This document shows, piece after piece, positions 674 through 48,200 of a stretch of DNA of 64,000 nucleotides (the first letter of the stretch is position 1; each line of letters begins with the position of its first letter). This stretch comes from Escherichia phage GEP001, in sequence record PV173775, one strand, 5' to 3'. Position numbers and translations under genes: made by a program. The notes below the pieces were generated by a model. That model was not told where the DNA came from. It was given only the letters and a program-made list of their open reading frames with translations, and searched no databases.

Positions 674-691
674 AAGGGGCTTCGGCCCCTT
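674..691 (+). terminator. stem-loop aaggggc-ttcg-gcccctt after regA (weak U tract)
   Basis: 7-bp GC-rich inverted repeat with UUCG loop read directly from sequence. Confidence 0.45.
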
Positions 692-749: not shown

Positions 750-3446
750 ATGAAAGAATTTTATATCTCTATCGAAACAGTCGGAAATAATATTGTTGAA
801 CGTTATATTGATGAAAATGGAAAGGAACGTACTCGTGAAGTAGAATATCTTCCGACTATGTTTAGGCATTGTAAGGAAGAGTCAAAATACAAAGACATTT
901 ATGGTAAAAATTGCGCTCCTCAAAAATTTCCATCAATGAAAGATGCACGAGACTGGATGAAACGAATGGAAGATATCGGTCTCGAAGCTCTCGGTATGAA
1001 CGATTTTAAACTCGCTTATATCAGTGATACATATGGTTCAGAAATTGTTTATGACCGAAAATTTGTTCGTGTAGCTAACTGTGACATTGAGGTTACTGGT
1101 GATAAATTTCCTGACCCAATGAAAGCAGAATATGAAATTGATGCTATCACTCATTATGATTCAATTGACGACCGTTTTTACGTCTTTGATTTGTTGAATT
1201 CAATGTACGGTTCAGTATCAAAATGGGATGCAAAGTTAGCTGCTAAGCTTGACTGTGAAGGTGGTGATGAAGTTCCTCAGGAAATTCTTGACCGAGTAAT
1301 TTATATGCCATTCGATAATGAGCGTGATATGCTCATGGAATATATTAATCTCTGGGAACAGAAACGACCTGCTATTTTTACCGGTTGGAATATTGAGGGA
1401 TTTGACGTTCCGTATATCATGAATCGCGTTAAAATGGTTCTCGGTGAACGTAGTATGAAACGCTTCTCTCCAATCGGTCGAGTAAAATCTAAACTAATTC
1501 AAAATATGTACGGTAGCAAAGAAATTTATTCTATTGATGGCGTATCTATTCTTGATTATTTAGATTTGTACAAGAAATTCGCATTTACTAATTTGCCATC
1601 ATTCTCTTTGGAATCAGTTGCTCAACATGAAACCAAAAAAGGTAAATTGCCGTACGATGGTCCTATTAATAAACTTCGTGAGACTAATCATCAACGATAC
1701 ATTAGTTATAACATTATTGACGTAGAATCAGTTCAAGCAATTGATAAAATTCGTGGGTTTATCGATCTAGTTTTAAGTATGTCTTATTATGCTAAAATGC
1801 CTTTTTCTGGCGTAATGAGTCCTATTAAAACTTGGGATGCTATTATTTTTAACTCATTGAAAGGTGAACATAAGGTTATTCCTCAACAAGGTTCGCACGT
1901 TAAACAAAGTTTTCCAGGTGCATTTGTGTTTGAACCTAAAGCGATTGCCCGTCGATACATTATGAGTTTTGACTTGACGTCTTTGTATCCTAGCATTATT
2001 CGTCAGGTTAACATTAGTCCTGAGACTATTCGTGGACAGTTTAAAGTTCATCCAATTCATGAATATATCGCAGGAACAGCTCCTAAACCAAGTGATGAGT
2101 ATTCATGTTCTCCGAATGGATGGATGTATGATAAGCATCAAGAAGGTATCATTCCAAAGGAAATCGCTAAAGTATTTTTCCAACGTAAAGATTGGAAAAA
2201 GAAAATGTTCGCTGAAGAAATGAATGCCGAAGCTATTAAAAAGATTATTATGAAAGGTGCAGGGTCTTGTTCAACTAAACCGGAAGTTGAACGATATGTT
2301 AAGTTCAATGATGATTTCTTAAATGAATTATCGAATTACACCGAATCTGTTCTTAATAGTCTGATCGAAGAATGTGAAAAAGCAGCTACACTTGCTAACA
2401 CAAATCAGCTGAACCGTAAAATTCTTATTAACAGTCTTTATGGTGCTCTTGGCAATATTCATTTCCGTTACTATGATTTGCGAAATGCTACTGCTATCAC
2501 AATTTTTGGTCAAGTTGGTATTCAGTGGATTGCTCGTAAAATTAATGAATACCTGAATAAAGTATGTGGAACTGATGGTGAAGATTTCATTGCAGCAGGT
2601 GATACTGATTCGGTATATGTCTGTGTAGATAAAGTTATTGAAAAAGTAGGTCTTGACCGCTTTAAAGAACAAAATGATTTAGTTGAATTCATGAATCAGT
2701 TTGGTAAGAAAAAGATGGAACCTATGATTGATGTTGCATATCGTGAGTTATGTGATTATATGAATAACCGCGAGCATCTGATGCATATGGACCGTGAAGC
2801 TATTTCTTGCCCTCCACTTGGTTCAAAGGGTGTTGGTGGATTTTGGAAAGCGAAAAAACGTTATGCTCTAAACGTTTATGATATGGAAGATAAGCGATTT
2901 GCCGAACCGCATCTAAAAATCATGGGTATGGAAACTCAACAAAGTTCAACACCAAAAGCAGTACAAGAAGCTCTCGAAGAAAGTATTCGTCGTATTCTTC
3001 AGGAAGGCGAAGAGTCTGTCCAAGAATACTACAAGAACTTTGAGAAAGAATATCGTCAACTTGACTATAAAGTTATTGCTGAAGTAAAAACTGCGAATGA
3101 TATAGCGAAATATGATGATAAAGGTTGGCCAGGATTTAAATGCCCGTTCCACATTCGCGGTGTGCTAACTTATCGTCGAGCTGTTAGTGGTTTAGGTGTA
3201 GCTCCAATTTTGGATGGAAATAAGGTAATGGTTCTTCCATTACGTGAGGGAAATCCATTTGGTGATAAGTGCATTGCTTGGCCGTCGGGTACGGAACTTC
3301 CAAAAGAAATTCGTTCTGATGTACTGTCTTGGATTGACTACTCAACTTTGTTCCAAAAATCGTTTGTTAAACCGCTTGCGGGTATGTGTGAATCGGCAGG
3401 TATGGACTATGAGGAAAAAGCTTCGTTAGACTTCCTGTTTGGCTGA
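750..3446 (+). CDS. 43: DNA polymerase gp43 (family B, 3'-5' exonuclease)
   Basis: 898 aa, same length as T4 gp43; N-terminus MKEFYISIETVGNNIVERYIDENGKERTREVEY...; polymerase motifs DxxSLYPS and YGDTDS present. Confidence 0.97.
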   Translation: MKEFYISIETVGNNIVERYIDENGKERTREVEYLPTMFRHCKEESKYKDIYGKNCAPQKFPSMKDARDWMKRMEDIGLEALGMNDFKLAYISDTYGSEIVYDRKFVRVANCDIEVTGDKFPDPMKAEYEIDAITHYDSIDDRFYVFDLLNSMYGSVSKWDAKLAAKLDCEGGDEVPQEILDRVIYMPFDNERDMLMEYINLWEQKRPAIFTGWNIEGFDVPYIMNRVKMVLGERSMKRFSPIGRVKSKLIQNMYGSKEIYSIDGVSILDYLDLYKKFAFTNLPSFSLESVAQHETKKGKLPYDGPINKLRETNHQRYISYNIIDVESVQAIDKIRGFIDLVLSMSYYAKMPFSGVMSPIKTWDAIIFNSLKGEHKVIPQQGSHVKQSFPGAFVFEPKAIARRYIMSFDLTSLYPSIIRQVNISPETIRGQFKVHPIHEYIAGTAPKPSDEYSCSPNGWMYDKHQEGIIPKEIAKVFFQRKDWKKKMFAEEMNAEAIKKIIMKGAGSCSTKPEVERYVKFNDDFLNELSNYTESVLNSLIEECEKAATLANTNQLNRKILINSLYGALGNIHFRYYDLRNATAITIFGQVGIQWIARKINEYLNKVCGTDGEDFIAAGDTDSVYVCVDKVIEKVGLDRFKEQNDLVEFMNQFGKKKMEPMIDVAYRELCDYMNNREHLMHMDREAISCPPLGSKGVGGFWKAKKRYALNVYDMEDKRFAEPHLKIMGMETQQSSTPKAVQEALEESIRRILQEGEESVQEYYKNFEKEYRQLDYKVIAEVKTANDIAKYDDKGWPGFKCPFHIRGVLTYRRAVSGLGVAPILDGNKVMVLPLREGNPFGDKCIAWPSGTELPKEIRSDVLSWIDYSTLFQKSFVKPLAGMCESAGMDYEEKASLDFLFG

Positions 3447-6077: not shown

Positions 6078-7259
6078 ATGTCTATTGCAGATTTAAAATC
6101 CCGTTTGATTAAAGCTTCCACTTCTAAAATGACTGCTGAACTGACTACATCTAAATTCTTTAATGAAAAGGATGTAATCCGTACAAAAATCCCAATGCTT
6201 AATATCGCTATTTCTGGTGCGATTGATGGTGGTATGCAGTCTGGTTTAACCATTTTTGCAGGTCCTTCTAAACACTTTAAATCAAATATGTCTTTGACTA
6301 TGGTTGCGGCGTATTTGAACAAATATCCTGACGCAGTTTGTCTATTCTATGATAGCGAATTTGGTATTACTCCAGCTTATTTGCGATCCATGGGAGTTGA
6401 CCCGGAACGAGTAATTCATACACCAATCCAGTCAGTTGAACAACTGAAAATTGATATGGTGAATCAGCTTGAAGCTATTGAGCGTGGTGAAAAGGTTATT
6501 GTATTCATCGACTCAATCGGTAATATGGCTTCTAAGAAAGAAACGGAAGATGCCTTGAATGAAAAATCTGTGGCAGATATGACTCGTGCTAAATCACTGA
6601 AGTCATTATTCCGTATTGTTACTCCTTATTTTAGTATTAAAAACATTCCATGTGTTGCGGTTAACCATACAATTGAAACAATTGAAATGTTTAGTAAAAC
6701 CGTGATGACAGGTGGTACAGGCGTAATGTATTCGGCTGATACTGTATTCATTATCGGTAAACGTCAGATTAAAGATGGTTCTGATCTTCAGGGGTATCAA
6801 TTTGTTCTAAATGTAGAAAAATCTCGTACTGTCAAAGAAAAAAGTAAATTCTTTATTGATGTTAAATTTGACGGTGGTATCGATCCTTATTCTGGATTGT
6901 TAGATATGGCTCTTGAATTAGGATTTGTGGTAAAACCTAAAAATGGCTGGTATGCTCGTGAATTTCTTGACGAAGAAACCGGCGAGATGATTCGCGAAGA
7001 AAAATCTTGGCGTGCAAAAGATACCAATTGCACTACATTCTGGGGTCCTTTATTTAAACATCAGCCATTCCGAGATGCTATTAAACGTGCTTATCAGTTA
7101 GGTGCTATTGATAGCAATGAAATTGTTGAAGCTGAAGTTGATGAATTGATTAACTCAAAGGTTGAAAAATTTAAATCTCCAGAAAGTAAAAGTAAATCAG
7201 TAGCTGATTTAGAAACTGACCTAGATCAGTTAAGTGATATGGAAGAATTTAATGAATAA
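6078..7259 (+). CDS. uvsX: UvsX recombinase (RecA/Rad51 family)
   Basis: 393 aa; Walker A GPSKHFKS; sequence recognised as T4 UvsX. Confidence 0.95.
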   Translation: MSIADLKSRLIKASTSKMTAELTTSKFFNEKDVIRTKIPMLNIAISGAIDGGMQSGLTIFAGPSKHFKSNMSLTMVAAYLNKYPDAVCLFYDSEFGITPAYLRSMGVDPERVIHTPIQSVEQLKIDMVNQLEAIERGEKVIVFIDSIGNMASKKETEDALNEKSVADMTRAKSLKSLFRIVTPYFSIKNIPCVAVNHTIETIEMFSKTVMTGGTGVMYSADTVFIIGKRQIKDGSDLQGYQFVLNVEKSRTVKEKSKFFIDVKFDGGIDPYSGLLDMALELGFVVKPKNGWYAREFLDEETGEMIREEKSWRAKDTNCTTFWGPLFKHQPFRDAIKRAYQLGAIDSNEIVEAEVDELINSKVEKFKSPESKSKSVADLETDLDQLSDMEEFNE

Positions 7260-7596
7260 AGATGATTTAGATTTAGATCTAGAAATTATCGATGAATCCC
7301 CCTCTTCGGAGGGGGAAGAAGAAAGAAAAGAACGTCTTTTTAATGAATCTCTTAAGATAATTAAATCTGCCATGGAAAATGTTATCCAGGAGATTGTCAT
7401 TAAACTAGAAGATGGTTCTACACACATTGTGTATGTGACAAAATTAGATTGGGTTGATGGAAAAGTCGTAATGGACTTTGCTGTTCTTGATCAAGAAAGA
7501 AAAGCTGAGTTAGCTCCTCATGTAGAAAAATGTATTACAATGCAACTACAAGATGCATTTAATAAAAGGTCAAAGAAAAAATTTAAATTCTTTTAA
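7252..7596 (+). CDS. 40: gp40 head-vertex assembly chaperone
   Basis: 114 aa from internal Met (MNKDDLDLDL...), matching T4 gp40 length; lies between uvsX and 41. Confidence 0.65.
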   Translation: MNKDDLDLDLEIIDESPSSEGEEERKERLFNESLKIIKSAMENVIQEIVIKLEDGSTHIVYVTKLDWVDGKVVMDFAVLDQERKAELAPHVEKCITMQLQDAFNKRSKKKFKFF

Positions 7597-15229: not shown

Positions 15230-15236
15230 TAATTCA

Positions 15237-15262
15237 AGGACTCCTTCGGGAGTCCTTTTTTC
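15237..15262 (+). terminator. intrinsic terminator aggactcc-ttcg-ggagtcct + T6
   Basis: 8-bp stem, UUCG loop, tttttt. Confidence 0.8.
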
Positions 15263-25592: not shown

Positions 25593-25853
25593 ATGAAATA
25601 TGTTAATCGTTCTATCGCGGCATTAGTATTAGCAGTATCTTTAGTAGGATGTACTGATGCTGATAATGCAACCAAAGTTTTGTCTTCAAGTGGGTTTACT
25701 AATATTGAAATCACTGGATACAATTGGTTTGGTTGCTCTGAAAATGATTTCCAACACACTGGATTTCGTGCTATTGGACCTACCGGGCAAAAAGTAGAAG
25801 GAACCGTGTGTTCTGGTCTATTCTTCAAGGATTCGACTATCCGTTTTAAATAA
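25593..25853 (+). CDS. lipoprotein (86 aa)
   Basis: MKYVNRSIAALVLAVSLVGC signal peptide with lipobox. Confidence 0.55.
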   Translation: MKYVNRSIAALVLAVSLVGCTDADNATKVLSSSGFTNIEITGYNWFGCSENDFQHTGFRAIGPTGQKVEGTVCSGLFFKDSTIRFK

Positions 25854-25870
25854 AAGGCCTTCGGGCCTTT
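25853..25870 (+). terminator. stem-loop aaaggcc-ttcg-ggccttt
   Basis: 7-bp stem with UUCG loop; weak U tract. Confidence 0.5.
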
Positions 25871-30197: not shown

Positions 30198-31136
30198 ATG
30201 TACAATATTAAATGCCTGACCAAAAACGAACAAGCTGAAATTGTCAAACTGTATTCAAGTGGTAATTATACTCAGCAGGAATTGGCTGATTGGCAAGGTG
30301 TATCGGTTGATACCATCCGTCGTGTTTTGAAAAATGCTGAAGAAGCTGAGCGCTCCAAAGTTACCATTAGCGGTGACATTACAGTTGAAGTTAAGAGTGA
30401 TGCAGTTATTGCTCCAGTTGCTAAATCTGACATTATTTGGAATGCATCTAAAAAATTCATTTCAATTACTGTTGATGGCGTAACTTATAACGCAACTCCT
30501 AATACTCATTCAAACTTCCAGGAAATTCTTAATCTGCTTGTTGCAGATAAATTGGAAGAAGCGGCACAAAAAATTAATGTTCGTCGCGCTGTTGAAAAAT
30601 ATATTTCCGGCGATGTTCGAATTGAAGGTGGAAGCCTGTTCTATCAAAATATTGAATTGCGGTCTGGTTTAGTTGATCGTATTCTCGATTCGATGGAAAA
30701 AGGTGAAAACTTTGAATTTTATTTTCCATTCCTGGAAAATCTGCTGGAAAACCCAAGCCAAAAAGCAGTATCTCGACTCTTTGATTTCTTGGTAGCAAAC
30801 GATATTGAAATTACAGAAGACGGCTACTTCTATGCTTGGAAAGTAGTTCGCAGCAATTACTTTGACTGTCATTCAAATACTTTTGATAACAGCCCTGGTA
30901 AAGTAGTTAAAATGCCACGTACTCGTGTGAATGACGATGATACACAAACTTGTTCTCGTGGTCTGCATGTGTGTTCTAAATCTTATATTCGTCACTTTGG
31001 TAGTTCAACCAGTCGAGTTGTAAAAGTTAAAGTGCATCCGCGTGATGTAGTATCAATTCCGATTGATTACAACGATGCTAAAATGCGTACCTGCCAATAC
31101 GAAGTAGTTGAAGACGTTACTGAACAATTTAAATAA
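30198..31136 (+). CDS. rIIB: rIIB protein
   Basis: 312 aa; follows rIIA; recognised as T4 rIIB. Confidence 0.9.
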   Translation: MYNIKCLTKNEQAEIVKLYSSGNYTQQELADWQGVSVDTIRRVLKNAEEAERSKVTISGDITVEVKSDAVIAPVAKSDIIWNASKKFISITVDGVTYNATPNTHSNFQEILNLLVADKLEEAAQKINVRRAVEKYISGDVRIEGGSLFYQNIELRSGLVDRILDSMEKGENFEFYFPFLENLLENPSQKAVSRLFDFLVANDIEITEDGYFYAWKVVRSNYFDCHSNTFDNSPGKVVKMPRTRVNDDDTQTCSRGLHVCSKSYIRHFGSSTSRVVKVKVHPRDVVSIPIDYNDAKMRTCQYEVVEDVTEQFK

Positions 31137-31164
31137 GGGCTTCGGCCCTTAACTAAGGAAAATT

Positions 31165-31359: not shown

Positions 31360-31364
31360 AATAA

Positions 31365-31388
31365 GGGCTTCGGCCCTTTTGTTTTAAG
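31365..31388 (+). terminator. intrinsic terminator aagggc-ttcg-gccctt + T-rich
   Basis: Read directly from sequence. Confidence 0.7.
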
Positions 31389-38356: not shown

Positions 38357-38629
38357 ATGAATAAAAACATTGATACAGTTCGTGAAATTATTACTGTTGC
38401 GTCTATTTTGATTAAATTTTCCAGAGAAGATATTGTTGAGAATCGTGCTAATTTTATTGCATTTCTGAATGAGATTGGAGTAACGCATGAAGGTAGAAAG
38501 TTAAATCAGAATTCATTCCGTAAAATTGTTTCTGAATTAACCCAAGAAGATAAGAAAACCCTCATCGACGAATTCAACGAGGGTTTTGAGGGTGTATATC
38601 GATATCTAGAGATGTATACAAACAAATAA
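38357..38629 (+). CDS. asiA: AsiA anti-sigma70 factor
   Basis: 90 aa; MNKNIDTVREIITVASILIKFSREDIVENRANFIAFLNEIGVTHEGRKL... recognised as T4 AsiA. Confidence 0.9.
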   Translation: MNKNIDTVREIITVASILIKFSREDIVENRANFIAFLNEIGVTHEGRKLNQNSFRKIVSELTQEDKKTLIDEFNEGFEGVYRYLEMYTNK

Positions 38630-39286
38630 TTATTTAGCCCTTCCTAATATTCTGGCCGCCTGAGAACATATTGATTCAAGGCGGTCATTACTTATATGAT
38701 CATTTCTATACCAGTACATGGTTATTGTTCCAGCATAGATATTATCCAAATTGAAATATGGACAACTATACATGTAATTTATTTCGGGAGTAGGCTTTTT
38801 AGTTGGTAAAAAAGCAAATTTTGAATTGGAATAATAGTGACGTCCATTTAAATGAACTGTATATTCATCCATAGTTTTATCAACAGGATATCCTCCAAGT
38901 GATTTTTCGCTTATTGTTGAAGGTAATTTTCCTTCATATGCTATGATATCAACAAAATAGTTTAAGTTTTTAGGGCGGAAAGAATACACCGCACTAAAGT
39001 CTGCCTCAGATGATATATGAACTATCTGGAGTTGTTCCAGGGCGACAGATTCAAAGCGTGCATTTCTTTCCTTTTCAATAATTTCACTGTATGTTTCATA
39101 CTTTGATTGCTTATAGTACTCAAAGAAACTATCTCCCCTATACCAAACAATCGCCATCATAAATAAAAGAATTACGACAGCTACTCGGGAAGCAAGAACC
39201 TTCCCGGTAGCGTTATCTTTGAACAAGCGATCTAGAACACCCAACAGAATATCAGAGGGCGAAAATGATATTCTAGGTGCTGCCAT
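38630..39286 (-). CDS. t: holin T
   Basis: 218 aa; one N-terminal TM segment and large periplasmic domain; convergent with asiA as in T4. Confidence 0.85.
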   Translation of the reverse strand: MAAPRISFSPSDILLGVLDRLFKDNATGKVLASRVAVVILLFMMAIVWYRGDSFFEYYKQSKYETYSEIIEKERNARFESVALEQLQIVHISSEADFSAVYSFRPKNLNYFVDIIAYEGKLPSTISEKSLGGYPVDKTMDEYTVHLNGRHYYSNSKFAFLPTKKPTPEINYMYSCPYFNLDNIYAGTITMYWYRNDHISNDRLESICSQAARILGRAK

Positions 39287-39316
39287 AGACCCTCCTTTTA
39301 AGGATATTTATTCAAA

Positions 39317-40105
39317 TTATACTCTTGGACCATATATTGCTCCAACGTTTTGCCATGTCGGTGTAGACCCTATGACGGCATAACCAGCAGCACCGCCATC
39401 GTATTCATATCCTTGACCACGAATATTACATCTACCTCCTGCGGAGCCAACTTCACCACCAGACCCGCCGCTATAGATACCGTTCACAGACCCTGCGCCA
39501 GGCGCAGAAATAGTACCAGCAGTTGCTCCTGATTGCATATCAATAGATCCGCCGGGCGCGCCAAACGGACGACCGCCGCCACCGCCAAAGGTCAATCTCA
39601 TTTGTGAAAAAGGAGAATAATATCCGCCGCCACCGCCGCCGCCGCCGCCAGCAATAGCTCCGCCATTATTAATTCTTAGTCTCCCACCAATATCATTTTG
39701 AATACAATGACCCCCAGCTGAGCCAGGACTATTGCTACCGCCATTCCCGCCACGGCCATACATCGTTACACCATGTATATTCAGTTGAACATATTCATTC
39801 GGTGTATCTCCGTACATGAAGAATAAAGGAACATCTTTAGAATATGATACTAAATCTCCAGTGATATTAAACACTATAGGTGCACTACCTGCCTCAAAAC
39901 ATCTATCTCGGAACCATTGGCCATTGAAGTTATGGTCTGCTCCAAGCGTGTGAATTATTTCAACAGATCGACCTATCATATTACTCATCCAGAACGGAAT
40001 GCCCATTCTTAATCGTTGGGCCGCGCCACCCATCCAATTTTGTCCTGTATTAACTACTGCAGACGATCCTACCCACGGTCCTGTTACTGCCATATAAACC
40101 TCCAA
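39317..40105 (-). CDS. 38: gp38 receptor-recognising adhesin (T2-type, glycine-rich motifs)
   Basis: 262 aa; GGGGGGGGG and GGxGG tracts; T4 gp38 is shorter and lacks these, T2/T6-type is about 260 aa. Confidence 0.8.
39625..39651 (-). repeat. (GGC/GCC)n simple repeat encoding the poly-Gly tract of gp38
   Basis: ccgccgccaccgccgccgccgccgcca on the plus strand. Confidence 0.8.
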
Positions 40106-40124
40106 GGGGCCGAAGCCCCTCTTA

Positions 40125-43100
40125 TTATTTTAACAACGATTTAACTAATGCTTTAAGTTCTTCGATTTCTGATTTAAGTTCTGCAATTTCTGCAGTATGC
40201 TCATTGATTGCAGCTGTATTTAAACCAATTATACCGTTATAGTTCAAACGAAGTAAAGCTTCACCATCAGGGTCACCTTCAACCAATTCAGGTAAAATAG
40301 CTTGAACTTCTTGAGCTATCAAACCGGCGTTAGGTTCCCATTTCTGATTGCCTTCTTCATCTAGGCCTCGCTTCTGCATATAAGTGTAACCGTTAATTTT
40401 AGAAAGCTTCTCAGAAGCATTTTCAAATTTAACAAGGTCTTTTTTAACACGAATATCAGAACGGACATAAACATCGCGGACAAATGTGGAATAGGCATCG
40501 CTTTGTTGGATTAAATGACCAAAAGAAATAATAGCTCTTCCTTGTTCAGTCCACAAAGCACCAGTGGTATCCCAAAGACCTTCATGGAGATGGTAAGCGG
40601 ACGACCATGAAGCAATATGCATTCCATTTGCAACCATGTTAATACGACCGTCACCGCCATGAACTAACCCAGTGTCATTATCACCAATAACAACACATGC
40701 GCCTGTCCATGCAGGGTCACCTCCACCAGCTGATATTCTTACTCCAGCTTTAACCATGTCAGGAACGTACATGTTTCCATTATGGTGGAATTCGAAGATA
40801 GCTTGCGGATCGCTAGCATTTTCCTGGTTACCAACACGAATAATAGCCTGAGCCCATTGGTTAGTGATACGGCGCATACCAAAATCTACGCCTGATACGT
40901 ATCCTTCGTTAGTAATGACAGATTTCCCTTTGATAATTGGATAATAGCTATCATTACCTACGTAGCCAAAATCCACAAATATCGGTGCTTCTTGTCGCCA
41001 TTGGTTTGCCCAATCGCCAGCTTGGTGCGCAATCCAGTATGCTCCATTTATATAAAGACGGTCCCTATTAAAATTAAAAGTAGCAGACCCTTGAGGAGAT
41101 AAAGTAATTTCTCCGACATCATTAATGTTAACACCGCTGTTAGTTTGAAAACTATAAAACGATATAGCATTATCAGCGCCGCCATTGCCTACATACCAGT
41201 TATTAACACCACCTTTTTTACCTTTAACATAGCCAGCTTCATCTGCTGGATAATCAATAACAACAGCGTCTGAGTTGGTTTTAAGAGTTAAACGGCCTGT
41301 CATCGTGTCGCCTTCTTTAGCCACACGGGAGGCAATAGCATCATGAAGGTTGGTTATATCACCAGCAGAGCTAAATAATTTCCAAATATCAGAGAAGATA
41401 TTACCATTTCGAGCAATAGTAGCTTCACCACCACCAACCTGTACGTTATCTGGGAAGTTAACAGTACCGTCCTGATTAAAACGAGACGTATGGCCTTGTG
41501 AACCATCTTCTTTCAGATGATGAATAACGAATGTACCTGAATTAATTTCAGTACCTAAAGACCAAACGGATTTACCGTTTAGAAACTTCTGTTTAACAAT
41601 AGGATAATATTTGCTTACAGCATCATCATCGATTTCCTGGAAAATAGGAGCCGCTTGAACATATTGAATGTCATAACCGCCGGCACCCGCTCCATGACCA
41701 GTAAATTTAATATAACCGTTTGCTGCGAACGTATTGTAACTTGATTGTAAATCTGGAATAGTAACTTTACCAGTATCTAAAGCCATACTAAACGGGCGAA
41801 GTGGACCGATATCGCCATGTTTACCTTCGCCATAAGCAGTTGGAATAATATGAAGACTGCCTTCTGAACGTCTAAAAATAGCTCCATAATCTGCGTTCCA
41901 AATGCGAAGCGCATTCACTGCTCCAGATGAAATTTCGCCTGTTGTGTGAACTCCTCTATTTCCAGCAGTAACACCGGATGATTCAAATGAACCATTGACG
42001 TTCATTTCTACTTCACCAGTAGTAAGTCTTTGAATATAACTCATCCAGCTAGTTGCATCAGAAATTTCCATGACATTTTTACGATTACCTACACTAGGAT
42101 TAGTAAACGTATTACCCCATACAGAAATTGTCATATTATCAACTGAACTGCTACCAGTTGTGTTACCTCTAAACAACAGCGTAGAAGCATTATTACGACC
42201 ATCAATATTAACAGAACCACCAATAACGTCAATATTACCTGGAGTAACTAACAAACCGCCATGAGTATTAATGTTTGTGGTACCCTTACCGCGGAAATAA
42301 TGATGATAATTACCACCTTGGTAATATCCTAAAAGAGTCTGACCGTCACCGTATGCGTTATTATCATGGTAAGTAACAACAGTAGCCAAAGCATAGTTTT
42401 CAGTCGGAGGAGTAGTTAAATCTGTTCCATTAGTAGAATATCCAGCTACAAATTTTCTTAGGCTAGTTGTTTCGCTAGGGCTAAATAAAAATGTTTTCGT
42501 TCCATTATTGACGCTGAAATAATATCCATCCTGATGCCATTTAAATCCGGTATCATTATCGCCAAGAGAAATTGAAGCAGTCCCTAATTCAGAGTATCCT
42601 TTATTGCCACCAGGAGTACCAACAGAAATAGAATGGCCTGCTTTCAATCCACCGGACCAGGTAAACGACCAAAGATAAGTGTCTAAGCCATCTCCAGTAT
42701 ACCAAGTTATTCCATCATTATCTTTAACTTCATGGAATACACCAGCGCCTACAGCATTGCGCATAACACGGAGATGATTAATAGCAGTAGTGCTTTCAGA
42801 CAATGGAACGTTGTCTGCCATAGAATAAATGTCATAATCGCTCGTAGATTTATTATTAGTAATAACTCTATTTGTCAAAATCTGAGGAGTTGACATAGAT
42901 TTCCATGCTGATACTTCAGGTGAAGTAAATAGGCCACTGCCTGAAAATGCATAGGTGCTTTCATCACCCGCGGCGTAGTCTTTAACGCGGATATTAACTA
43001 CTTGCGTAGTTAATCCATCATTAGCCGGTGCATAAATGATTCCACGTTCACGATCAGCTGAATCATGAAAACGAACATGTGCTGTACCTGAACTTTTTGT

Positions 43101-43436
43101 AATAAGTTCTCCGCCTTCGGTCATAATCTGCCCGGCGGCAATAATATCGCGAGTTACTCGAGCAATACCAGTTAAATTAAAATTACCTGTCTGAGTGAAG
43201 GTGCCATTTAAAGTATAATCACCAGTTTGATTATAGTTTCCTATATGAATAACATTCCCGTCAATACTACCGCCCTTAGCAAAACCAAGATCAATGATAT
43301 TTCCTTGGTCGTCTTTAGTAAAAAGTACGCGGTCTTTTAAGTTTATAGCCAATTCACCTTCGGCTAATACTGAAGCGGCAGGACGTGCTCCTGCAGTTTT
43401 GCTTCTTTTAAATTGTATTTGTTTTAAAGTAGCCAT
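40125..43436 (-). CDS. 37: gp37 long tail fiber distal subunit
   Basis: 1103 aa; N-terminus [40 protein letters not shown]...; the C-terminal about 100 aa resemble an intramolecular chaperone domain with coiled-coil tail. Confidence 0.85.
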
Positions 43437-43444
43437 AAGTCCTC

Positions 43445-44101
43445 TTAATAATAGCCGAAATCTTGAACAGAATCCTTAATAACAATTTGATCAAATCGTG
43501 GAACATGCGAAGGTTGAGATGCAGGATTCTGTGAAAAAAGGTTTGGCGCAGTTAAATTTCCTGTCATAGTATCTCCAGAGCGTAATACTCTAGAGTTTGC
43601 GTTTGCTGTAACAATATTTATTGCTCCATCAACATAATCTTTCCGTGTAAGGTCATAATTATTTACTGGAGATAATGAAGCTGCGCGTATTTGTGATGCT
43701 TCAATTACACCCTTTGAGCTAATATCTCCATTTCGCGTGTTAATTACTACAGTTCTACCTGCTGTTCCTTGTGATGATTTAAAACCAATACCATACCACG
43801 AAACAATATCCATATTTGTAGTATCATACGTGGCATTATCACCAGGACCAGCAAAAATACCATTGTCACCTGACCCTGCACCAGGAACAGTCATTCCTTT
43901 ATTAAAAATTACTTTATTTAAATACGTACCACCATTAGCTTTAGAAACGAAATCGTTATCAGTAGCTTGTGGTTTATTATATTCTGAATATATTTTAAAT
44001 GATTTATAGAGTACATCGTCACCGGCTGGATTCAATGGAAAATTTCCTTGATGCCAAATGACAGAGCCTCCAGTTGTTGAACCTACTTTTAAATCAGCCA
44101 T
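43445..44101 (-). CDS. 36: gp36 long tail fiber distal connector
   Basis: 218 aa; position between 35 and 37. Confidence 0.8.
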   Translation of the reverse strand: MADLKVGSTTGGSVIWHQGNFPLNPAGDDVLYKSFKIYSEYNKPQATDNDFVSKANGGTYLNKVIFNKGMTVPGAGSGDNGIFAGPGDNATYDTTNMDIVSWYGIGFKSSQGTAGRTVVINTRNGDISSKGVIEASQIRAASLSPVNNYDLTRKDYVDGAINIVTANANSRVLRSGDTMTGNLTAPNLFSQNPASQPSHVPRFDQIVIKDSVQDFGYY

Positions 44102-44124
44102 TGTATGCCCCTTTATTTTAATAG

Positions 44125-44132
44125 TATTTATA
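44125..44132 (-). promoter_or_regulatory. late promoter TATAAATA for gene 36
   Basis: Exact TATAAATA on the minus strand 24 bp upstream of the gene 36 ATG. Confidence 0.6.
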
Positions 44133-44133
44133 A

Positions 44134-44158
44134 AGAAAAAGGGAACCCGAAGGCTCCC
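44134..44158 (-). terminator. terminator hairpin gggagcc-uucg-gguuccc + U tract after gene 35
   Basis: 7-bp stem with one G-U pair and UUCG loop, read on the minus strand. Confidence 0.55.
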
Positions 44159-44163
44159 TCAAT

Positions 44164-45279
44164 TTAAACTTCTCTAAATTCTTGCCCAAACACTTTACCA
44201 GTTTTAGACGATGCTTGCGTAGGAAGTACCATTATATCCGGAGGTGAAGCAGATTCACAGACATAATTAACTCGAATACCATTGACGCCAAATTCAGCAG
44301 GTTTTGAAATTCCGCCATTTCTTGATACTTCAGAAAAACTTAAATTCCTCATGCCACCTTGACCTGCTTGTGCAGTTCTTTGTGCATATATCGTAAATCC
44401 TACTGCATTTTCTGGAATAACTACATAATCTTCCTTTAATTCCCATGACTCAGCTTGTCCAGTAAACTCAGCATGTGTTGAAGAAATATATCCATTCGAT
44501 TCATCATAAAAACGGATAGATATATTTGTAGTTCCAAGCGCAAGTAAATCGGCATCAGCATATAGCTGTGCTTTAAGATAAAGAACATCGCCAGGAATTA
44601 AATTATAATCAGAGAGTTTACTTATCGCAGATGAAGTTGGTAAACGTGCAATTTCGTTATTAGTTCCACCAACCGCTGACATAAATTGCTCAACGCTTTC
44701 GTATGTTCTTTTAGGAAATCCTGTAGCTCCAACGTCTTCTAAACTATCAAATACAACATCTAAAATAGTTTGATAGTCATCTGTGCTTTTTCTATTACTT
44801 AGTTTAACATGTTCTAATGCAATAGCTCTTTTAGAAGAAGTGTAAAAAGCAGCATATGATACGTCAAATCTTGACAATATAGAATCAGATGGAAAAGCAG
44901 ACGTTCCTGTGGCTCTTAGCCAAGATACTACCTCAGGAGGAAAATTAACCTTTCCACTAGTTAATATAGCAACAAGTCTATTATTCGTCAAAGAGTTCAT
45001 GAAACCAACAAAAGCAGCTGATGTAGTATCATCTGAAGTCGAAAAAGCATATGACTTACTATCAACCAATGCTCCTGTAGAAGGATCAAAAACTCTTAAA
45101 TGAAGACCTGCGTTAAATGTTTGGCTTCCGATAAGATTATCCTGAAATTTGACATATGGTCCTGCTGTAGAAAGCGGGCAAGAACCCGCTATGCTTATTT
45201 TATATCTTACTGAATTGCTTTCCGATAAAAATGGCGTTTGGACATATCCTTGTCCAAACTCTGCCATAAATTTTTCCAT
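44164..45279 (-). CDS. 35: gp35 long tail fiber hinge connector
   Basis: 371 aa (T4 gp35 is 372 aa). Confidence 0.8.
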   Translation of the reverse strand: MEKFMAEFGQGYVQTPFLSESNSVRYKISIAGSCPLSTAGPYVKFQDNLIGSQTFNAGLHLRVFDPSTGALVDSKSYAFSTSDDTTSAAFVGFMNSLTNNRLVAILTSGKVNFPPEVVSWLRATGTSAFPSDSILSRFDVSYAAFYTSSKRAIALEHVKLSNRKSTDDYQTILDVVFDSLEDVGATGFPKRTYESVEQFMSAVGGTNNEIARLPTSSAISKLSDYNLIPGDVLYLKAQLYADADLLALGTTNISIRFYDESNGYISSTHAEFTGQAESWELKEDYVVIPENAVGFTIYAQRTAQAGQGGMRNLSFSEVSRNGGISKPAEFGVNGIRVNYVCESASPPDIMVLPTQASSKTGKVFGQEFREV

Positions 45280-45287
45280 AATACCTC

Positions 45288-48200
45288 TTATTCAACCCAT
45301 TCAAATTTAACCGTTTTATTCACTGGGTCAGGAATAATACGAACATTACCAATTCGTAAGAAATCACGAATAGTAAGATTCCCCATTATAGCATTATCAG
45401 ATGGTAAAGCACCAATATCAGATGGCTGAGGAGGGTTACCCCCATCAAATACCTGAACAAAACTTGACCAAGAGTTTTTAGTTTTCTGCCATGTACGCGT
45501 CCAGCGAGTGGTGCGCGCTTCTGGGGTCGTTGGATAAGTAATCCAATCTTGGTAAAGCGAATCGAGTGTGTTACCAAACTGAGTCAACGTACCAGGAGAT
45601 TTAACCTCTTCGCCGCGTTCTAAGTATGGAAGACCAGTCACTTCATTAGTTTTTTCAACCATCTTAAAATAACCCGGGAATTGGTTATAAGTGGCTGAAT
45701 CATTAATATCGATTGACCAGAATCCTACAGTATCAGATGTTGGCGCACGAGTATATAAATCAGAGGTTTTAGTACCCTGAGAACGAATTCTCGAGTTGAC
45801 AGTTAAACCACCTGAAGTTATAGTAGCACCTTTGGCAATGATTAAGCTTTCACCAATTGTAACCTGACCAGATTGATTATTAATAGCTAAAGGACGTAAT
45901 CCATTAAATCCACCAGTCTGATCGCCAGATGCAGTAAGCATAAAATAGGTGTTAGCAGCATCATTGCGAATAAAGAATCCATAATCACCGTTTATTGCTC
46001 TAAAAGCATTCGACGATTTACTGATAAATTCGCCATTAGCAGTAACTGAACTACCGAATGTTGCAACGCCATTCGCATTCAATGTTCCTGAAGCATTCAC
46101 ATTTATCGGTGTTACTGTACCATTAATGCTAAATGCTATATTACCATCTTTATTGCGTTGAGAATAAAAGTGATAAGATGTGTCATCACTAACTTCAAAT
46201 ACAGTAGAACGTGTTGTATCTGACCCGCCACCAAACTGATTTCCCCAAACTGTGATATTCATCGTCTGTGCTGGGTTAGTTCCAGTTTGAGGTCCTTTTT
46301 CAAAAATCAATTGAGTTGCTGTTCCAGTATTAGAAATAGTCAATGTACTATTTGCTGAAACTGATCCACCGAACGTAGCAGTACTAGATGATACAAGAGG
46401 GGCACTCAGATTCGTTTGTTGGGTTAAGGTTAGTGAACCATTAACCGTTTGTGCAATATCCCTACGAATGAACTGAGATGAATCTAGACCATCCAGTAAA
46501 TTACTATCTACAGCTTTTGCTTTTAACGGCAAATAATTTGCTAATACACGGTTTAATTCGTATGGCGATACTGCATAACTATTTTTCTCGTACAATTCTA
46601 ATGACTGTGTTGAACCAACTGTATCATTACCAACGAATGTAATTGAACCAGATGAAGTTTTAACAAAACCTCTTACCAGAGTAGTAGCTGCCCAAGTAGG
46701 TTCACTCTGCACAATCCATTTTAAATTTTTTGGAGATACAGCAGTATTTGCTGACGTTCCAGCTACAGTTTCAGACTGAGTTGCAACTTTAATAACGCCT
46801 TCCTGTGCTTCAGTAGATTTAGTACCTAAAAGCTTTTTAGGAGTTATTAAAACATTATCTAATGTTCCTGCAGCAGCTTCAACTTGTGTAGCCACACGAA
46901 GTGTACCACGCTGTGTCTCATTTGCTTCAAGAATATTAAGGGTATAATGGTCCCAGAGAGTTCCTGATTCAACTAATCCAGATAGAGCAACAACAGAAGT
47001 ACGATCAGTACTGTTAAATCTAGTTTTAATTTTTAATGGTGTAGAGATACGAGTATCGTCGACGCCTGCGTCGAATTCAACTTGCGTAGCAATTTCAGCT
47101 ATACCACTTAAACTTTCAGTTGCTTTACGGTCATTTAAAGTTTTAGGAGTGACTGCGCGAGTATAATCAGTTCCTGTATTAACTTCACTTTGCGTAGCAA
47201 TTTCAATTAAACCAATTCTTCCATCAGTTGATGTCTTTTTATGTAACGTTTCTGGCGTTACAACAGCATTTGCCCATCCTTCTTGGCTTTGTCCAGCAAT
47301 TACTTCACTTTCAACCGCTAAAATTACTGCACCTTGTTGCGTTGGAGTAGCTTTATACTGATCCAGAGCTTTAGGCGAAACAACTAAATTATTAGTGTTT
47401 TTATTATAAACGTTTGTACCATTTAATTCACGACTAGAAGCTGGAGTAGCTCCTGCGGTAGATACAAAGGTTACAATACCAGATAATGATTCAGAACCTT
47501 GACGAGCTTGAAGCTTTTTAGGAGTGATGATTGTAGCATCATCAGTACCTGCATTAGTTTCTTGCTGTGTAGCAATTTCAGCAACACCTCTACGAGTTTC
47601 TGTGGCAGTTCTTTCATTCAGCTTTTTAGGAGTGATGATAATATCATCAGCAAAAGAGAATGTAGTATCCTGGTTCACTTGGGCAGTAGTTGCTATTCTT
47701 GCGATACCTCTACGAGTTTCTGTAGCAGTACGGTTAGCTAATGTTTCTGGTGTAATTGCTAATTCTTTTTGTGGAGAATTTTCTAAATCAGCATTTGCTT
47801 GAGCTTGTGTAGCTAAAGCTATTACGCCTAATCTTGCTCTAGTAGAATCATTTAAAGAATCAACTCTTTCAACAGTTGGAACGTTTTGTTGTACAACCCA
47901 GTATTTTCCGTCAGAATCTTCTATGTAAGCAAGCTGTAAAACTGGAACATAATTAGTTTCACCGTTAAAAACTAATTCTTGAACAGTCACCCATTCAGCT
48001 TCAGGCGGATACTCTGAACGTTTTGGGAATTGCAACAATTGAACTGAAGAAGCAATTTTATCTTCACCGGCAGCTTTGATTTTAACTGTTTGGCCTTTTC
48101 TCATGTAATTCATGGAAATTTTAACAGTATCACCAATGGAAATATCGGTTGGAAGTTGAAGTTCAATTGTTTGGGTTGTTCCGTTATTCGCTCCAAATAC

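Follow-up and report, generated by a model that had tools for sequence, protein, structure and literature searches.

Two features in and around gene 38 of Escherichia phage GEP001 are best read together: the glycine run of the tail-fibre adhesin gp38 as a polyglycine-II (PGII) scaffold of fixed length, and the hairpin between genes 37 and 38 as a barrier to RNA decay at the end of gene 37, perhaps with weak attenuator activity. We consider this joint reading probable. The locus itself is already known; it is an ordinary T6/RB27-type gp38 tail-fibre adhesin gene in the Tequatrovirus late operon 36-37-38-t. The features on which the argument depends are listed here by their positions in the window, the whole 64,000-nt stretch of DNA that was analyzed.

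38630..39286, minus strand: holin gene t, directly downstream of gene 38 (Pfam Phage_holin_T, 2.4e-117)
39317..40093, minus strand: gene 38, encoding the T6/RB27-type receptor-recognising adhesin gp38 (Pfam, PDB and nucleotide matches)
39572..39586, minus strand: GGGGG of the invariant GGGGGRPFG motif, spelled GGC GGT GGC GGC GGT, residues 170-174
39587..39622, minus strand: hypervariable segment 2 (HVS2), residues 158-169, a T6-like variable loop adjoining the glycine tract (from alignments)
39623..39649, minus strand: nine consecutive glycine codons (five GGC, one GGT, two GGC, one GGA, in that order), residues 149-157, within GRM2
40099..40103, minus strand: Shine-Dalgarno (SD) sequence GGAGG of gene 38, 5 nt before the ATG (read directly; position conserved in related loci)
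40104..40121, minus strand, with its GC core at 40106-40119: C(UUCG)G stem-loop of sequence GAGGGGC-UUCG-GCCCCUU, between genes 37 and 38 (fold, pattern count, covariation)
40122..40127, minus strand: tandem stop codons TAA TAA of gene 37 (TAA 40127-40125 and TAA 40124-40122)
40125..43436, minus strand: gene 37, encoding the distal subunit of the long tail fibre, whose C-terminal domain is a Peptidase_S74 intramolecular chaperone
44125..44132, minus strand: perfect T4-type late promoter motif TATAAATA, upstream of gene 36
44139..44160, minus strand: a further UUCG hairpin with a T run behind it, where gene 35 ends and just ahead of the late promoter (-14.6 kcal/mol)

Gene 38 and its place in the late operon

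The identity of gene 38 is clear. A first-pass annotation of this DNA had described gp38 as a T2/T6-type adhesin with poly-Gly tracts, and Pfam, PDB and nucleotide matches bear this out. Judged by the curated cut-offs (25 bits for each family), gp38 belongs to Pfam GP38 (2.4e-71, 240.5 bits) and Gp38_N (1.5e-21, 76.6 bits), and in the PDB it matches PP01 gp38 (9v85, 4.5e-81) and S16 gp38 (6f45_D, 6.7e-52). Gene 38 is 95-98% identical at the nucleotide level to its counterparts in PD112 (98.4%) and RB27 (95.4%). From the gp38 of T6 and RB27 the GEP001 protein differs by a few substitutions only, with the same order of GRMs and HVSs and the same site between gene 37 and t, and the HVS2 of T6, YYSPFPQMRLTF, is nearly identical to the 12-residue HVS2 of GEP001. 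The protein is not 262 aa long, as first annotated; it comprises 258 aa plus stop and starts at the ATG at 40093, the 262-aa ORF (39317..40105, minus strand) arising only from a TTG start within the SD region. We take the ATG at 40093 as the true start because the homologues and the S16 crystal-structure protein open with MAV, because Pfam Gp38_N spans residues 1-40 when numbered from that ATG, and because GGAGG sits 5 nt upstream. Gene 38 is annotated as 777 nt in most GenBank relatives, and the TTG start appears in one record (IME537).

The N terminus of gp38 is an attachment domain with conserved tryptophans: W7 and W20 hardly vary in the homologue alignment, and PFWMS contains W35. The conserved tryptophans of this domain dock onto the gp37 trimer, with one gp38 per trimer (PMC6851490). 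The gp38 proteins of S16 (PDB 6F45) and PP01 (PDB 9V85), PGII-sandwich adhesins that GEP001 gp38 matches over its full length, both use OmpC, whereas the hypervariable loops of GEP001 differ from theirs, which suggests a different receptor. T6-like adhesins, RB27 included, bind Tsx and make up the Tsx-recognising gp38 group of Trojet et al. 2011 (PMC3157838). Given the likeness of its HVSs to those of T6 and RB27, Tsx is the expected outer-membrane receptor of GEP001 gp38.

Gene 38 lies downstream of the S74-bearing gene 37 (Pfam Peptidase_S74, 1e-12, residues 993-1052) and upstream of the holin gene t. Ahead of gene 36 stands the only perfect late promoter motif of the minus strand from 38600 to 45400. 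Genes 37 and 38 have no late promoter between them, and motifs with one mismatch occur only inside coding sequence. Because the sole perfect late promoter sits upstream of gene 36, we infer that 36-37-38(-t) form one late transcription unit, and the promoter and operon arrangement of T4 is the same.

A glycine run of fixed length

The nine glycine codons, assigned to GRM2 according to the five-GRM scheme, were first annotated as a (GGC)n-type simple repeat at 39625-39651. The repeat is present, with those coordinates 2 nt off, and TRF reports it at 39624-39649 with a period of 3, 8.7 copies and 91% matches. It is broken by GGT and GGA, the sites of interruption differ among relatives, and the closest relatives have at most (GGC)2-4 within the run; the repeat is neither long and unbroken nor kept as DNA. 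The description of gp38 as hypervariable and glycine-rich holds for the segments between the glycine motifs and fails for the glycine tracts themselves: in alignments of gp38 homologues the motifs G113-G118, G150-G154 and G170-P176 are invariant and the segments between them variable, and the columns of G170-G174, R175 and P176 are unchanged across 27 diverse homologues.

What is constant in the run is its length. The tract fills a fixed slot of nine positions in 114 of the 118 homologue clusters, with nine glycines in 55 clusters and a run of eight in 38; runs shorter than eight mostly reflect substitutions at the ends of the slot, and in-frame deletions within it occur in only four clusters, all singletons. 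Eight close isolates (95-98% nucleotide identity) all carry nine glycine codons and differ at third positions only. The tract aligns with G151-G158 of S16 gp38 (PDB 6f45_D), relative to which GEP001 has one extra glycine at the C-terminal end of the helix. In S16 this stretch is the long central PGII helix 3, given as 151-GGGGGGGG-158 (PMC6851490), and PP01 gp38 has the same fold as S16 gp38 (PMC12892980). Work on T6-like phages found the sequence and order of the GRMs to be strictly conserved, recovered no viable phage from T6 deletions of GRM2/3/4, and traced the T6-to-PST host shift to point changes in HVS2/HVS3 (PMC3157838). We propose that the nine glycines of GEP001 form the long central polyglycine-II helix of a "PGII sandwich," a rigid core from which the hypervariable receptor-binding loops would project. 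The length of the run would then be set by protein structure rather than by a contingency repeat, and host range would shift as the loops that separate the glycine motifs acquire substitutions and exchange cassettes; the choice among GGC, GGT and GGA along the run would drift or reshuffle quickly, with the number of codons held.

The first-pass annotation had proposed another role for the tract, namely that (GGC)n is a slippage-prone contingency repeat whose expansion or contraction alters gp38 and hence host range. Like the phase-variable repeats of bacterial surface genes, the GEP001 run is a trinucleotide repeat inside a surface-recognition gene, and several observations agree with this proposal: a pure (GGC)5 of 15 nt, the longest pure stretch in the run, is present; third positions in the run turn over ~5 times faster than the other four-fold sites of the gene, which is compatible with frequent misalignment; the pure glycine-run length ranges from 5 to 9 between receptor classes, though always together with a different HVS2; and two singleton database alleles have lost glycine codons in frame in otherwise intact genes (three in P0072, five in P0112). 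These contraction alleles also count against a strictly constant length. However, bacterial contingency loci differ from the GEP001 run, which is interrupted, has its length fixed by protein structure and shows no length polymorphism in close isolates. The comparison of repeat length among isolates that had been proposed as a check returned an invariant length, the outcome named beforehand as speaking against slippage. Since the slot length is fixed in close isolates and across receptor classes, changes fall only at third codon positions and host range resides in the loops, the slippage proposal is not supported. With the tract matching the central PGII helix and GRM deletions non-viable, we regard it as very unlikely, and it is already largely refuted by the length invariance.

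The glycine-motif repeats may nevertheless be mutationally hyperactive DNA whose length is frozen by selection on the PGII lattice, a possibility we raise tentatively. Units would be reshuffled by slippage or by short-patch gene conversion from one GGY run, or one co-infecting allele, to another. The corresponding signature would be a near-saturated synonymous change in glycine runs of at least four codons, in genes otherwise 93-98% identical, together with rare contractions. If this possibility is true, the glycine repeats would drive cassette exchange of the hypervariable loops, not length switching.

A conserved stem-loop at the gene 37/38 junction

The hairpin, noted as GGGGCCGAAGCCCC at 40106-40119 on the plus strand, had been placed exactly. 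The window contains its 14-mer pattern twice (expectation from 100 shuffles, 0.00), and the sense (minus) strand form folds at -12.5 kcal/mol, a stability reached by none of 200 shuffles; the antisense form, with a CGAA loop, folds at -11.0 kcal/mol. A fold of the whole region (81 nt) gave an uninformative z-score of -0.55, shuffles of the G5/C5-containing sequence themselves refolding, and was replaced by the pattern expectation, the short-hairpin folds and covariation as the basis for significance. Rfam covariance models gave no match at the gathering threshold anywhere in the window. The order at the junction is gene 37 stops, hairpin, SD and ATG. The GC stem ends two U residues short of the SD, and with the A-U and G.U extension counted the hairpin abuts GGAGG; it does not overlap the ribosome-binding site, as the first-pass annotation had it in its title. 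The SD is unpaired in both the minimum free energy and the centroid folds. Such tight packing of stop, hairpin, SD and ATG may be no more than a product of genome compaction.

The hairpin is a genuine feature maintained by selection and did not arise by chance. A metagenome scan added at least 13 extra loci. Of 43 related loci compared, 30 carry a hairpin at the same position, with at least 10 different stem sequences and, in 29 of the 30, a stem that ends 0-3 nt before the SD. In the alignment 86.7% of cells are paired, double changes affect three stem pairs (21-36, 22-35 and 25-32; 15 cells), the covariation score was reached by 0 of 500 shuffles, and controls with a slid register peak at 0. 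Only the sense strand has the G.U pairs and the UUCG loop. The remaining 13 loci lack any hairpin, and gene 38 there adjoins or overlaps the gene 37 stop codon; adhesin expression in general can therefore do without the element. The window holds eight UUCG hairpins, all on the sense strand, and seven of them begin 0-7 nt past a stop codon, with the next ATG 10 to ~70 nt away. The 37/38 hairpin is one of this class of highly stable gene-end stem-loops, which recur across the genome.

With a C-G-closed UUCG loop on a stable stem of the transcribed strand and compensatory changes in relatives, the hairpin is by its sequence a conserved, previously described T-even intergenic C(UUCG)G stem-loop. 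Such tetraloop hairpins were reportedly described in T4 mRNAs by Tuerk et al. in 1988. Like the T4 examples, that of GEP001 has a C-G-closed UUCG loop and a GC-rich stem and is intercistronic; it is a typical member with no difference from them. The history of the class has been reviewed (PMC4371310). The closest counterpart is the split initiation region of T4 gene 38, which lies at the same junction and shares an identical 16-nt core, AGAGGGGCTTCGGCCC, with its UUCG loop. In T4 the order is stop, SD (GGAG), hairpin and AUG, and the hairpin brings a GGAG located 22 nt from the ATG to within 5 nt of it (PMC3014915). In GEP001, by contrast, the order is stop, hairpin, SD (GGAGG), 5 nt and AUG, and the downstream adhesin-type gene 38 is unrelated to T4 gene 38. 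A split initiation region has its SD upstream and its AUG downstream of the hairpin, and GEP001 does not show this arrangement.

Candidate functions of the stem-loop

Intercistronic stem-loops can stabilize the mRNA upstream of them, as does the REP element between malE and malF of E. coli. The GEP001 hairpin has no sequence relation to that element and resembles it in being a stable hairpin right after the more needed upstream cistron. The most likely function of the GEP001 hairpin is likewise that of a decay barrier or weak attenuator. Acting in the sense RNA, it would delimit the gene 37 segment at its 3′ end in the late polycistronic 36-37-38-t mRNA and oppose 3′-to-5′ decay, perhaps with weak attenuation in addition. 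As a result, the phage would produce an excess of gp36 and gp37 (three gp37 per fibre) relative to gp38 (one per fibre) and the holin, and translation of gene 38 would start from a strong, unpaired SD of its own that directly follows the stem. A literature search on T4 late-transcript 3′ ends and terminators turned up none mapped at the 37/38 junction.

Alternatively, the hairpin could serve chiefly in the translation of gene 38, as a variant form of the "split" initiation region of T4 gene 38: it would keep the SD at the foot of a rigid helix, shielded from upstream pairing, or couple initiation to the termination of gene 37. The first-pass annotation had likewise suggested structured or coupled translation of the adhesin. 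Because the homologous T4 hairpin has a demonstrated translational role, in which shortening the SD-AUG spacing from 22 to 5 nt enhances initiation (PMC3014915), a role in the gene 38 initiation region deserves weight here as well. The identity of the 16-nt core with that of T4 and the near-constant distance between stem end and SD in the hairpin-bearing loci agree with it, and the 5′ arm, beginning 4 nt after the gene 37 stop, would be melted by a ribosome that terminates there. Against this, the SD lies 3′ of the hairpin at the normal 5-nt spacing and is unpaired, so that neither sequestration nor SD-AUG bridging takes place; the kinship with a translation-enhancing hairpin nevertheless makes some link to translation not implausible. 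We also modelled SD accessibility with disrupted, deleted and compensated stems. In some contexts it was 0.76 with the stem intact or compensated versus 0.2-0.56 with the stem disrupted, but the effect was inconsistent across context lengths and mutant designs, depended on context size and came partly from pairing of the mutant sequence with the loop CUUC. Moreover, hairpins of this type also follow other genes, where the next ATG is 37-70 nt away. We consider a mainly translational function unlikely. As for coupling as such, the layout of the junction neither requires nor excludes it.

Less probable still is a transcription terminator, either a partial one for the late sense RNA or a plus-strand stop for early antisense read-through from the asiA side. 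An ARNold-based annotation lists a putative terminator (-10.1) in MK327937 and MK327928, several lineages (L028, L042 and L047) have U4-U5 after the sense stem, our plus-strand scan flags AGGGGCCGAAGCCCCT followed by CTTATTATTT as terminator-like, and the early genes motA..asiA converge on the late cluster. On the sense strand, however, the same scan made no call. The tail after the stem, UUGGAGGU, is a poor U tract with 3 U in 8, and efficient intrinsic termination is therefore unlikely; strong termination would also starve gene 38 and t, which have no promoter of their own. For the antisense direction, the UUCG loop and the G.U pairs favor the sense RNA, the CGAA loop is less stable, and the A-rich sequence upstream of the hairpin is expected anyway from the stop codons and the AT-rich genome. 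That the hairpin is a DNA-level island of micro-homology promoting modular exchange of gene 38 or the gene 37 tip at the adhesin cassette boundary is exceedingly unlikely: T4 and GEP001 do share the 16-nt core next to an unrelated gene 37 3′ end and gene 38, in a locus known for modular shuffling (PMC3157838, PMC12032242), but 16 nt is a very short homology, the compensatory stem changes between lineages preserve structure rather than sequence, and the G.U pairs and loop asymmetry point to RNA.

The hairpin's conservation, covariation, strand bias, gene-end position and homology with T4 are matters of observation; that it acts where gene 37 ends as a barrier to decay or as a weak attenuator, with the stoichiometric rationale for this, is our most likely reading of them. 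The stem-loop of the T4 gene 38 "split" ribosome-binding site is thus conserved at the same junction in adhesin-type phages, on the opposite side of the SD. This suggests that the hairpin has its primary role where gene 37 ends and that T4 uses it only secondarily for translation. The 37/38 hairpin may also be portable, a junction element usable on either side of an SD. In most T-even phages gp38 is the main determinant of host range, and which of its parts can vary bears on receptor prediction and on the engineering of therapeutic phages. The glycine runs would be a scaffold of fixed length rather than tunable repeats, and the loops between them the parts to engineer.

Gene 38 and the late tail-fibre cluster

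The queried stretch shares 98.4% identity with phage PD112 and 95.4% with RB27, matches 492 phage records and belongs to a window that is a portion of a T-even (Tequatrovirus) genome. With the T4 map used for comparison, the early genes motA to asiA on the plus strand converge with a late cluster on the minus strand, and zero bases separate the convergent stop codons of asiA (end 38629, plus strand) and holin t (end 38630, minus strand), as in T4.

Late cluster of the window
44164-45279, minus strand, gene 35, late tail-fibre gene
43445-44101, minus strand, gene 36, late tail-fibre gene
40125-43436, minus strand, gene 37, late tail-fibre gene
39317-40093, minus strand, gene 38, late tail-fibre gene
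38630-39286, minus strand, holin t, listed with the late tail-fibre cluster

Between 38600 and 45400 the minus strand carries a single perfect late-promoter motif, at 44132 upstream of gene 36, so 36-37-38(-t) probably form one late transcript, with the hairpin of the 37/38 junction inside it. Preceding this promoter, where gene 35 ends, are a UUCG hairpin and a T run, exactly as in T4. In this interval between genes 35 and 36 (44125-44160, minus strand), the UUCG hairpin has a G·U pair and is followed by the T run and the perfect late promoter TATAAATA; the interval is nearly identical to that of the T4 locus (L075 3810-3845), the single change being on the 5′ side of the stem. Near its 3′ end (40152-40192, minus strand), gene 37 holds a 21-nt tandem duplication (2.0 copies, 90% identity) encoding a 14-residue heptad-like stretch at the extreme C terminus of the gp37 S74 chaperone domain.

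The gene 38 product matches the Pfam families GP38 (2.4e-71) and Gp38_N (1.5e-21), as well as the solved gp38 of PP01 (9v85, 4.5e-81) and S16 (6f45, 6.7e-52). Among the T6-like adhesins, already described, it is nearly identical to known members; Tsx is the reported receptor of that group, RB27 included (PMC3157838). The length of 262 aa given by the first-pass annotation results from starting at a TTG that falls within the Shine-Dalgarno (SD) region. Counted from the ATG at 40093, which follows a GGAGG after 5 nt, the protein has 258 aa and starts MAVTGPW, like the homologues and the crystal-structure protein. GenBank relatives mostly annotate 777 nt, and one record uses the TTG start. Among the homologues, the deposited gp38 of phages vB_EcoM_RZ (P0075) and Bp7 (P0092) shifts frame in the C-terminal glycine-rich region and ends in unrelated residues; frame errors at G-rich stretches, introduced by sequencing or annotation, are the likely cause, the alternative being that the genes are defective. 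One 303-aa ORF from an E. coli assembly (P0074) combines Peptidase_S74, Gp38_N and GP38, and resembles the product of read-through or fusion between genes 37 and 38, or else an artefact of the contig.

Length and synonymous turnover of the glycine tract

The tract (39649..39623, minus strand) consists of nine glycine codons (five GGC, GGT, two GGC, GGA). We aligned 118 homologue cluster representatives, down to 47% identity, and found that it fills a slot of nine fixed positions, with nine glycines in 55 of the 118 clusters and a run of eight in 38, shorter runs being due mainly to substitutions at the slot edges. Tract indels were absent from these clusters outside four singletons: P0072 lacks three glycines, P0112 lacks five, and P0008 and P0029 miss the whole stretch from the tract motif to the next glycine motif. 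P0112 (L076 318-1079) and P0072 (L077 322-1092) are JSE/RB49-like gp38 with in-frame contractions to four and six glycines, respectively, versus nine; both alleles come from Logan contigs, in genes intact elsewhere, and show that contraction can arise, whether in the phage or in the assembly. As for codon usage, about 40 loci keep the number of glycine codons and differ in the order of GGC, GGT and GGA, and eight close isolates (95-98% identity) each have exactly nine, differing at third positions only. The (GGC)5 run is specific to the window. G2133 and Pu-Krd-SF6, one codon shorter overall, carry another cassette of a hypervariable segment (HVS), and their tract is not shortened.

The glycine-rich motifs (GRMs) and their structure are already published. 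The tract aligns to G151-G158 of S16 gp38, described as a long helix, PGII helix 3, in a polyglycine sandwich of three layers, host-range adaptation taking place in the distal loops, which are the HVSs (PMC6851490); PP01 gp38 shares this fold (PMC12892980). Trojet et al. found the sequence and order of GRMs strictly conserved, recovered no viable phage from T6 deletions of GRM2, GRM3 or GRM4, and traced the T6-to-PST host shift to a small number of point changes across HVS2 and HVS3 (PMC3157838). Together with this structure and genetics, the constant length essentially refutes, by the first-pass annotation's own standard of invariant repeat length, its proposal that slippage of the repeat could alter host range.

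What varies is the third codon position. Among closely related gp38 genes (39572-39649 of the window and homologues in L014-L074), four-fold divergence increases with the length of the glycine run at constant codon number.

Four-fold divergence by site class
Non-glycine sites, 0.065
Isolated glycine, 0.108
Glycine run of 2-3, 0.195
Glycine run of 4-5, 0.325
Glycine run of 6 or more, 0.36

In seven close relatives, 36% of comparisons at four-fold third positions within the tract show a difference, versus 6.7% at non-glycine four-fold sites; when 37 distinct genes were sorted into bins of background divergence, values in the tract and in the GGGGG motif (39572..39586, minus strand) were already about 0.37 where non-glycine sites stood at 0.045-0.07. 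Long runs use 46% GGC and 45% GGT, with GGC at 22% in shorter runs. Since the sequence pairs are non-independent, we regard the apparently faster synonymous turnover as only a lead. It is compatible with the published idea that GRMs are recombination hotspots (PMC12032242), and also with repeat-associated misalignment followed by selection on length.

The hairpin at the gene 37/38 junction

The hairpin was correctly placed at 40106-40119 by the first-pass annotation. Its pattern occurs twice in the window versus 0.00 expected, and its sense RNA, GAGGGGC-UUCG-GCCCCUU, has a predicted folding energy of -12.5 kcal/mol. Rather than overlapping the ribosome-binding site, the stem stops two U before the SD, which it adjoins when A-U and G·U pairs are counted. 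At this junction the window and T4 have a 16-nt core, AGAGGGGCTTCGGCCC, in common, even though neither the chaperone gene 38 of T4 nor the 3′ end of its gene 37 is related to the counterpart here. The T4 junction reads TAA-GGAG-AGGGGCTTCGGCCCTTCT-AAAT-ATG, with the hairpin between SD and AUG, a textbook “split” initiation region in which folding brings the SD, otherwise 22 nt from the AUG, to 5 nt from it and promotes initiation (PMC3014915). In the window, by contrast, the order is stop-hairpin-SD-AUG; the SD lies 3′ of the hairpin and the T4 mechanism is thus ruled out. The SD, GGAGG(U), is strong, normally spaced and unpaired in predicted folds; in silico tests of its accessibility gave inconsistent results. 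An action of the hairpin in translation at the gene 38 start is unlikely on our estimate.

The window contains eight UUCG hairpins, all sense to the local genes. Seven of them begin 0-7 nt past a stop codon, and the next ATG is 10 to about 70 nt away, indicating that the constant of the class is the end of the upstream gene and not the next ribosome-binding site. The one at 674-691 (plus strand, AAGGGGC-TTCG-GCCCCTT), whose 16-mer GGGGCTTCGGCCCCTT is identical to the 37/38 hairpin, lies 2 nt past the stop of a 122-aa ORF (303-671) and 58 nt ahead of an 898-aa ORF (750-3446), whose sizes would be compatible with regA and DNA polymerase gene 43 of T4.

Other C(UUCG)G hairpins of the window
15236-15257, 25853-25870, 31134-31151 and 31363-31378, plus strand, sense, 0-6 nt after a stop codon or overlapping it
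7297-7316, plus strand, within ORF 7252-7596

T runs follow the hairpins at 15236 and 31363, as in true terminators. The 37/38 hairpin is a member of the C(UUCG)G class, first observed in T4 mRNA (PMC4371310), and a homologue of the T4 gene 38 hairpin, and as such was previously described. Two GenBank records annotate its sequence as a putative terminator, and the T tract is better when read on the plus strand; the sense strand, however, offers only a poor U tract, and we consider termination on either strand slightly less probable even than a translational role. Read on the plus strand (40104-40123), the palindrome is followed by CTTATTATTT and is flagged as terminator-like; early antisense transcripts arriving from the direction of asiA could be halted there.

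The gene 38 start could be determined in 43 related loci, and 30 of these carry a GC-rich stem-loop at the equivalent place after the gene 37 stop, 0-3 nt ahead of the SD with one type excepted; its stem varies by lineage (GGGGC/GCCCC, GGGCC/GGCCC, GAGGGC/GCCCTC, GGGC/GCCC, GCCCC/GGGGC and triloop forms). In the other 13 no hairpin was found at the junction, and the stop of gene 37 is adjoined or overlapped by gene 38. One lineage (L016, L017, L021 and L025) has an AAGGGG(C/G)...CCCCTT triloop-type hairpin with the SD region GGAGTATAAATTATG (GGAGATAAATTATG in L016), and three of these four loci show a near-consensus late-promoter motif, TATAAAT, over the gene 38 spacer and start codon. Aligning 20 distinct junctions, we found 86.7% of cells paired and double-sided changes at three of seven stem pairs (15 cells), a covariation score matched by 0 of 500 shuffles; sliding the 3′ arm by at least one column lowered all pairing and covariation measures. 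The G·U pairs fall on the sense strand and the tetraloop is predominantly UUCG (variants UUAG and CUCG), which points to an RNA element of the sense strand, not a DNA one; we rate a DNA-level recombination junction as very improbable.

Taken together, the observation behind the first-pass annotation stands and its interpretation is partly supported. The gene, its glycine motifs and the hairpin had all been described; modestly new are the finding that adhesin-type phages carry the SD on the opposite flank of the conserved hairpin, and the synonymous turnover that grows with glycine-run length. As the most likely mechanism, we infer that the hairpin would be an RNA element belonging to the end of gene 37, serving as a barrier against 3′ exonucleolytic decay and possibly also as a weak attenuator, a role that would suit the requirement for three gp37 per single gp38, and for little holin.
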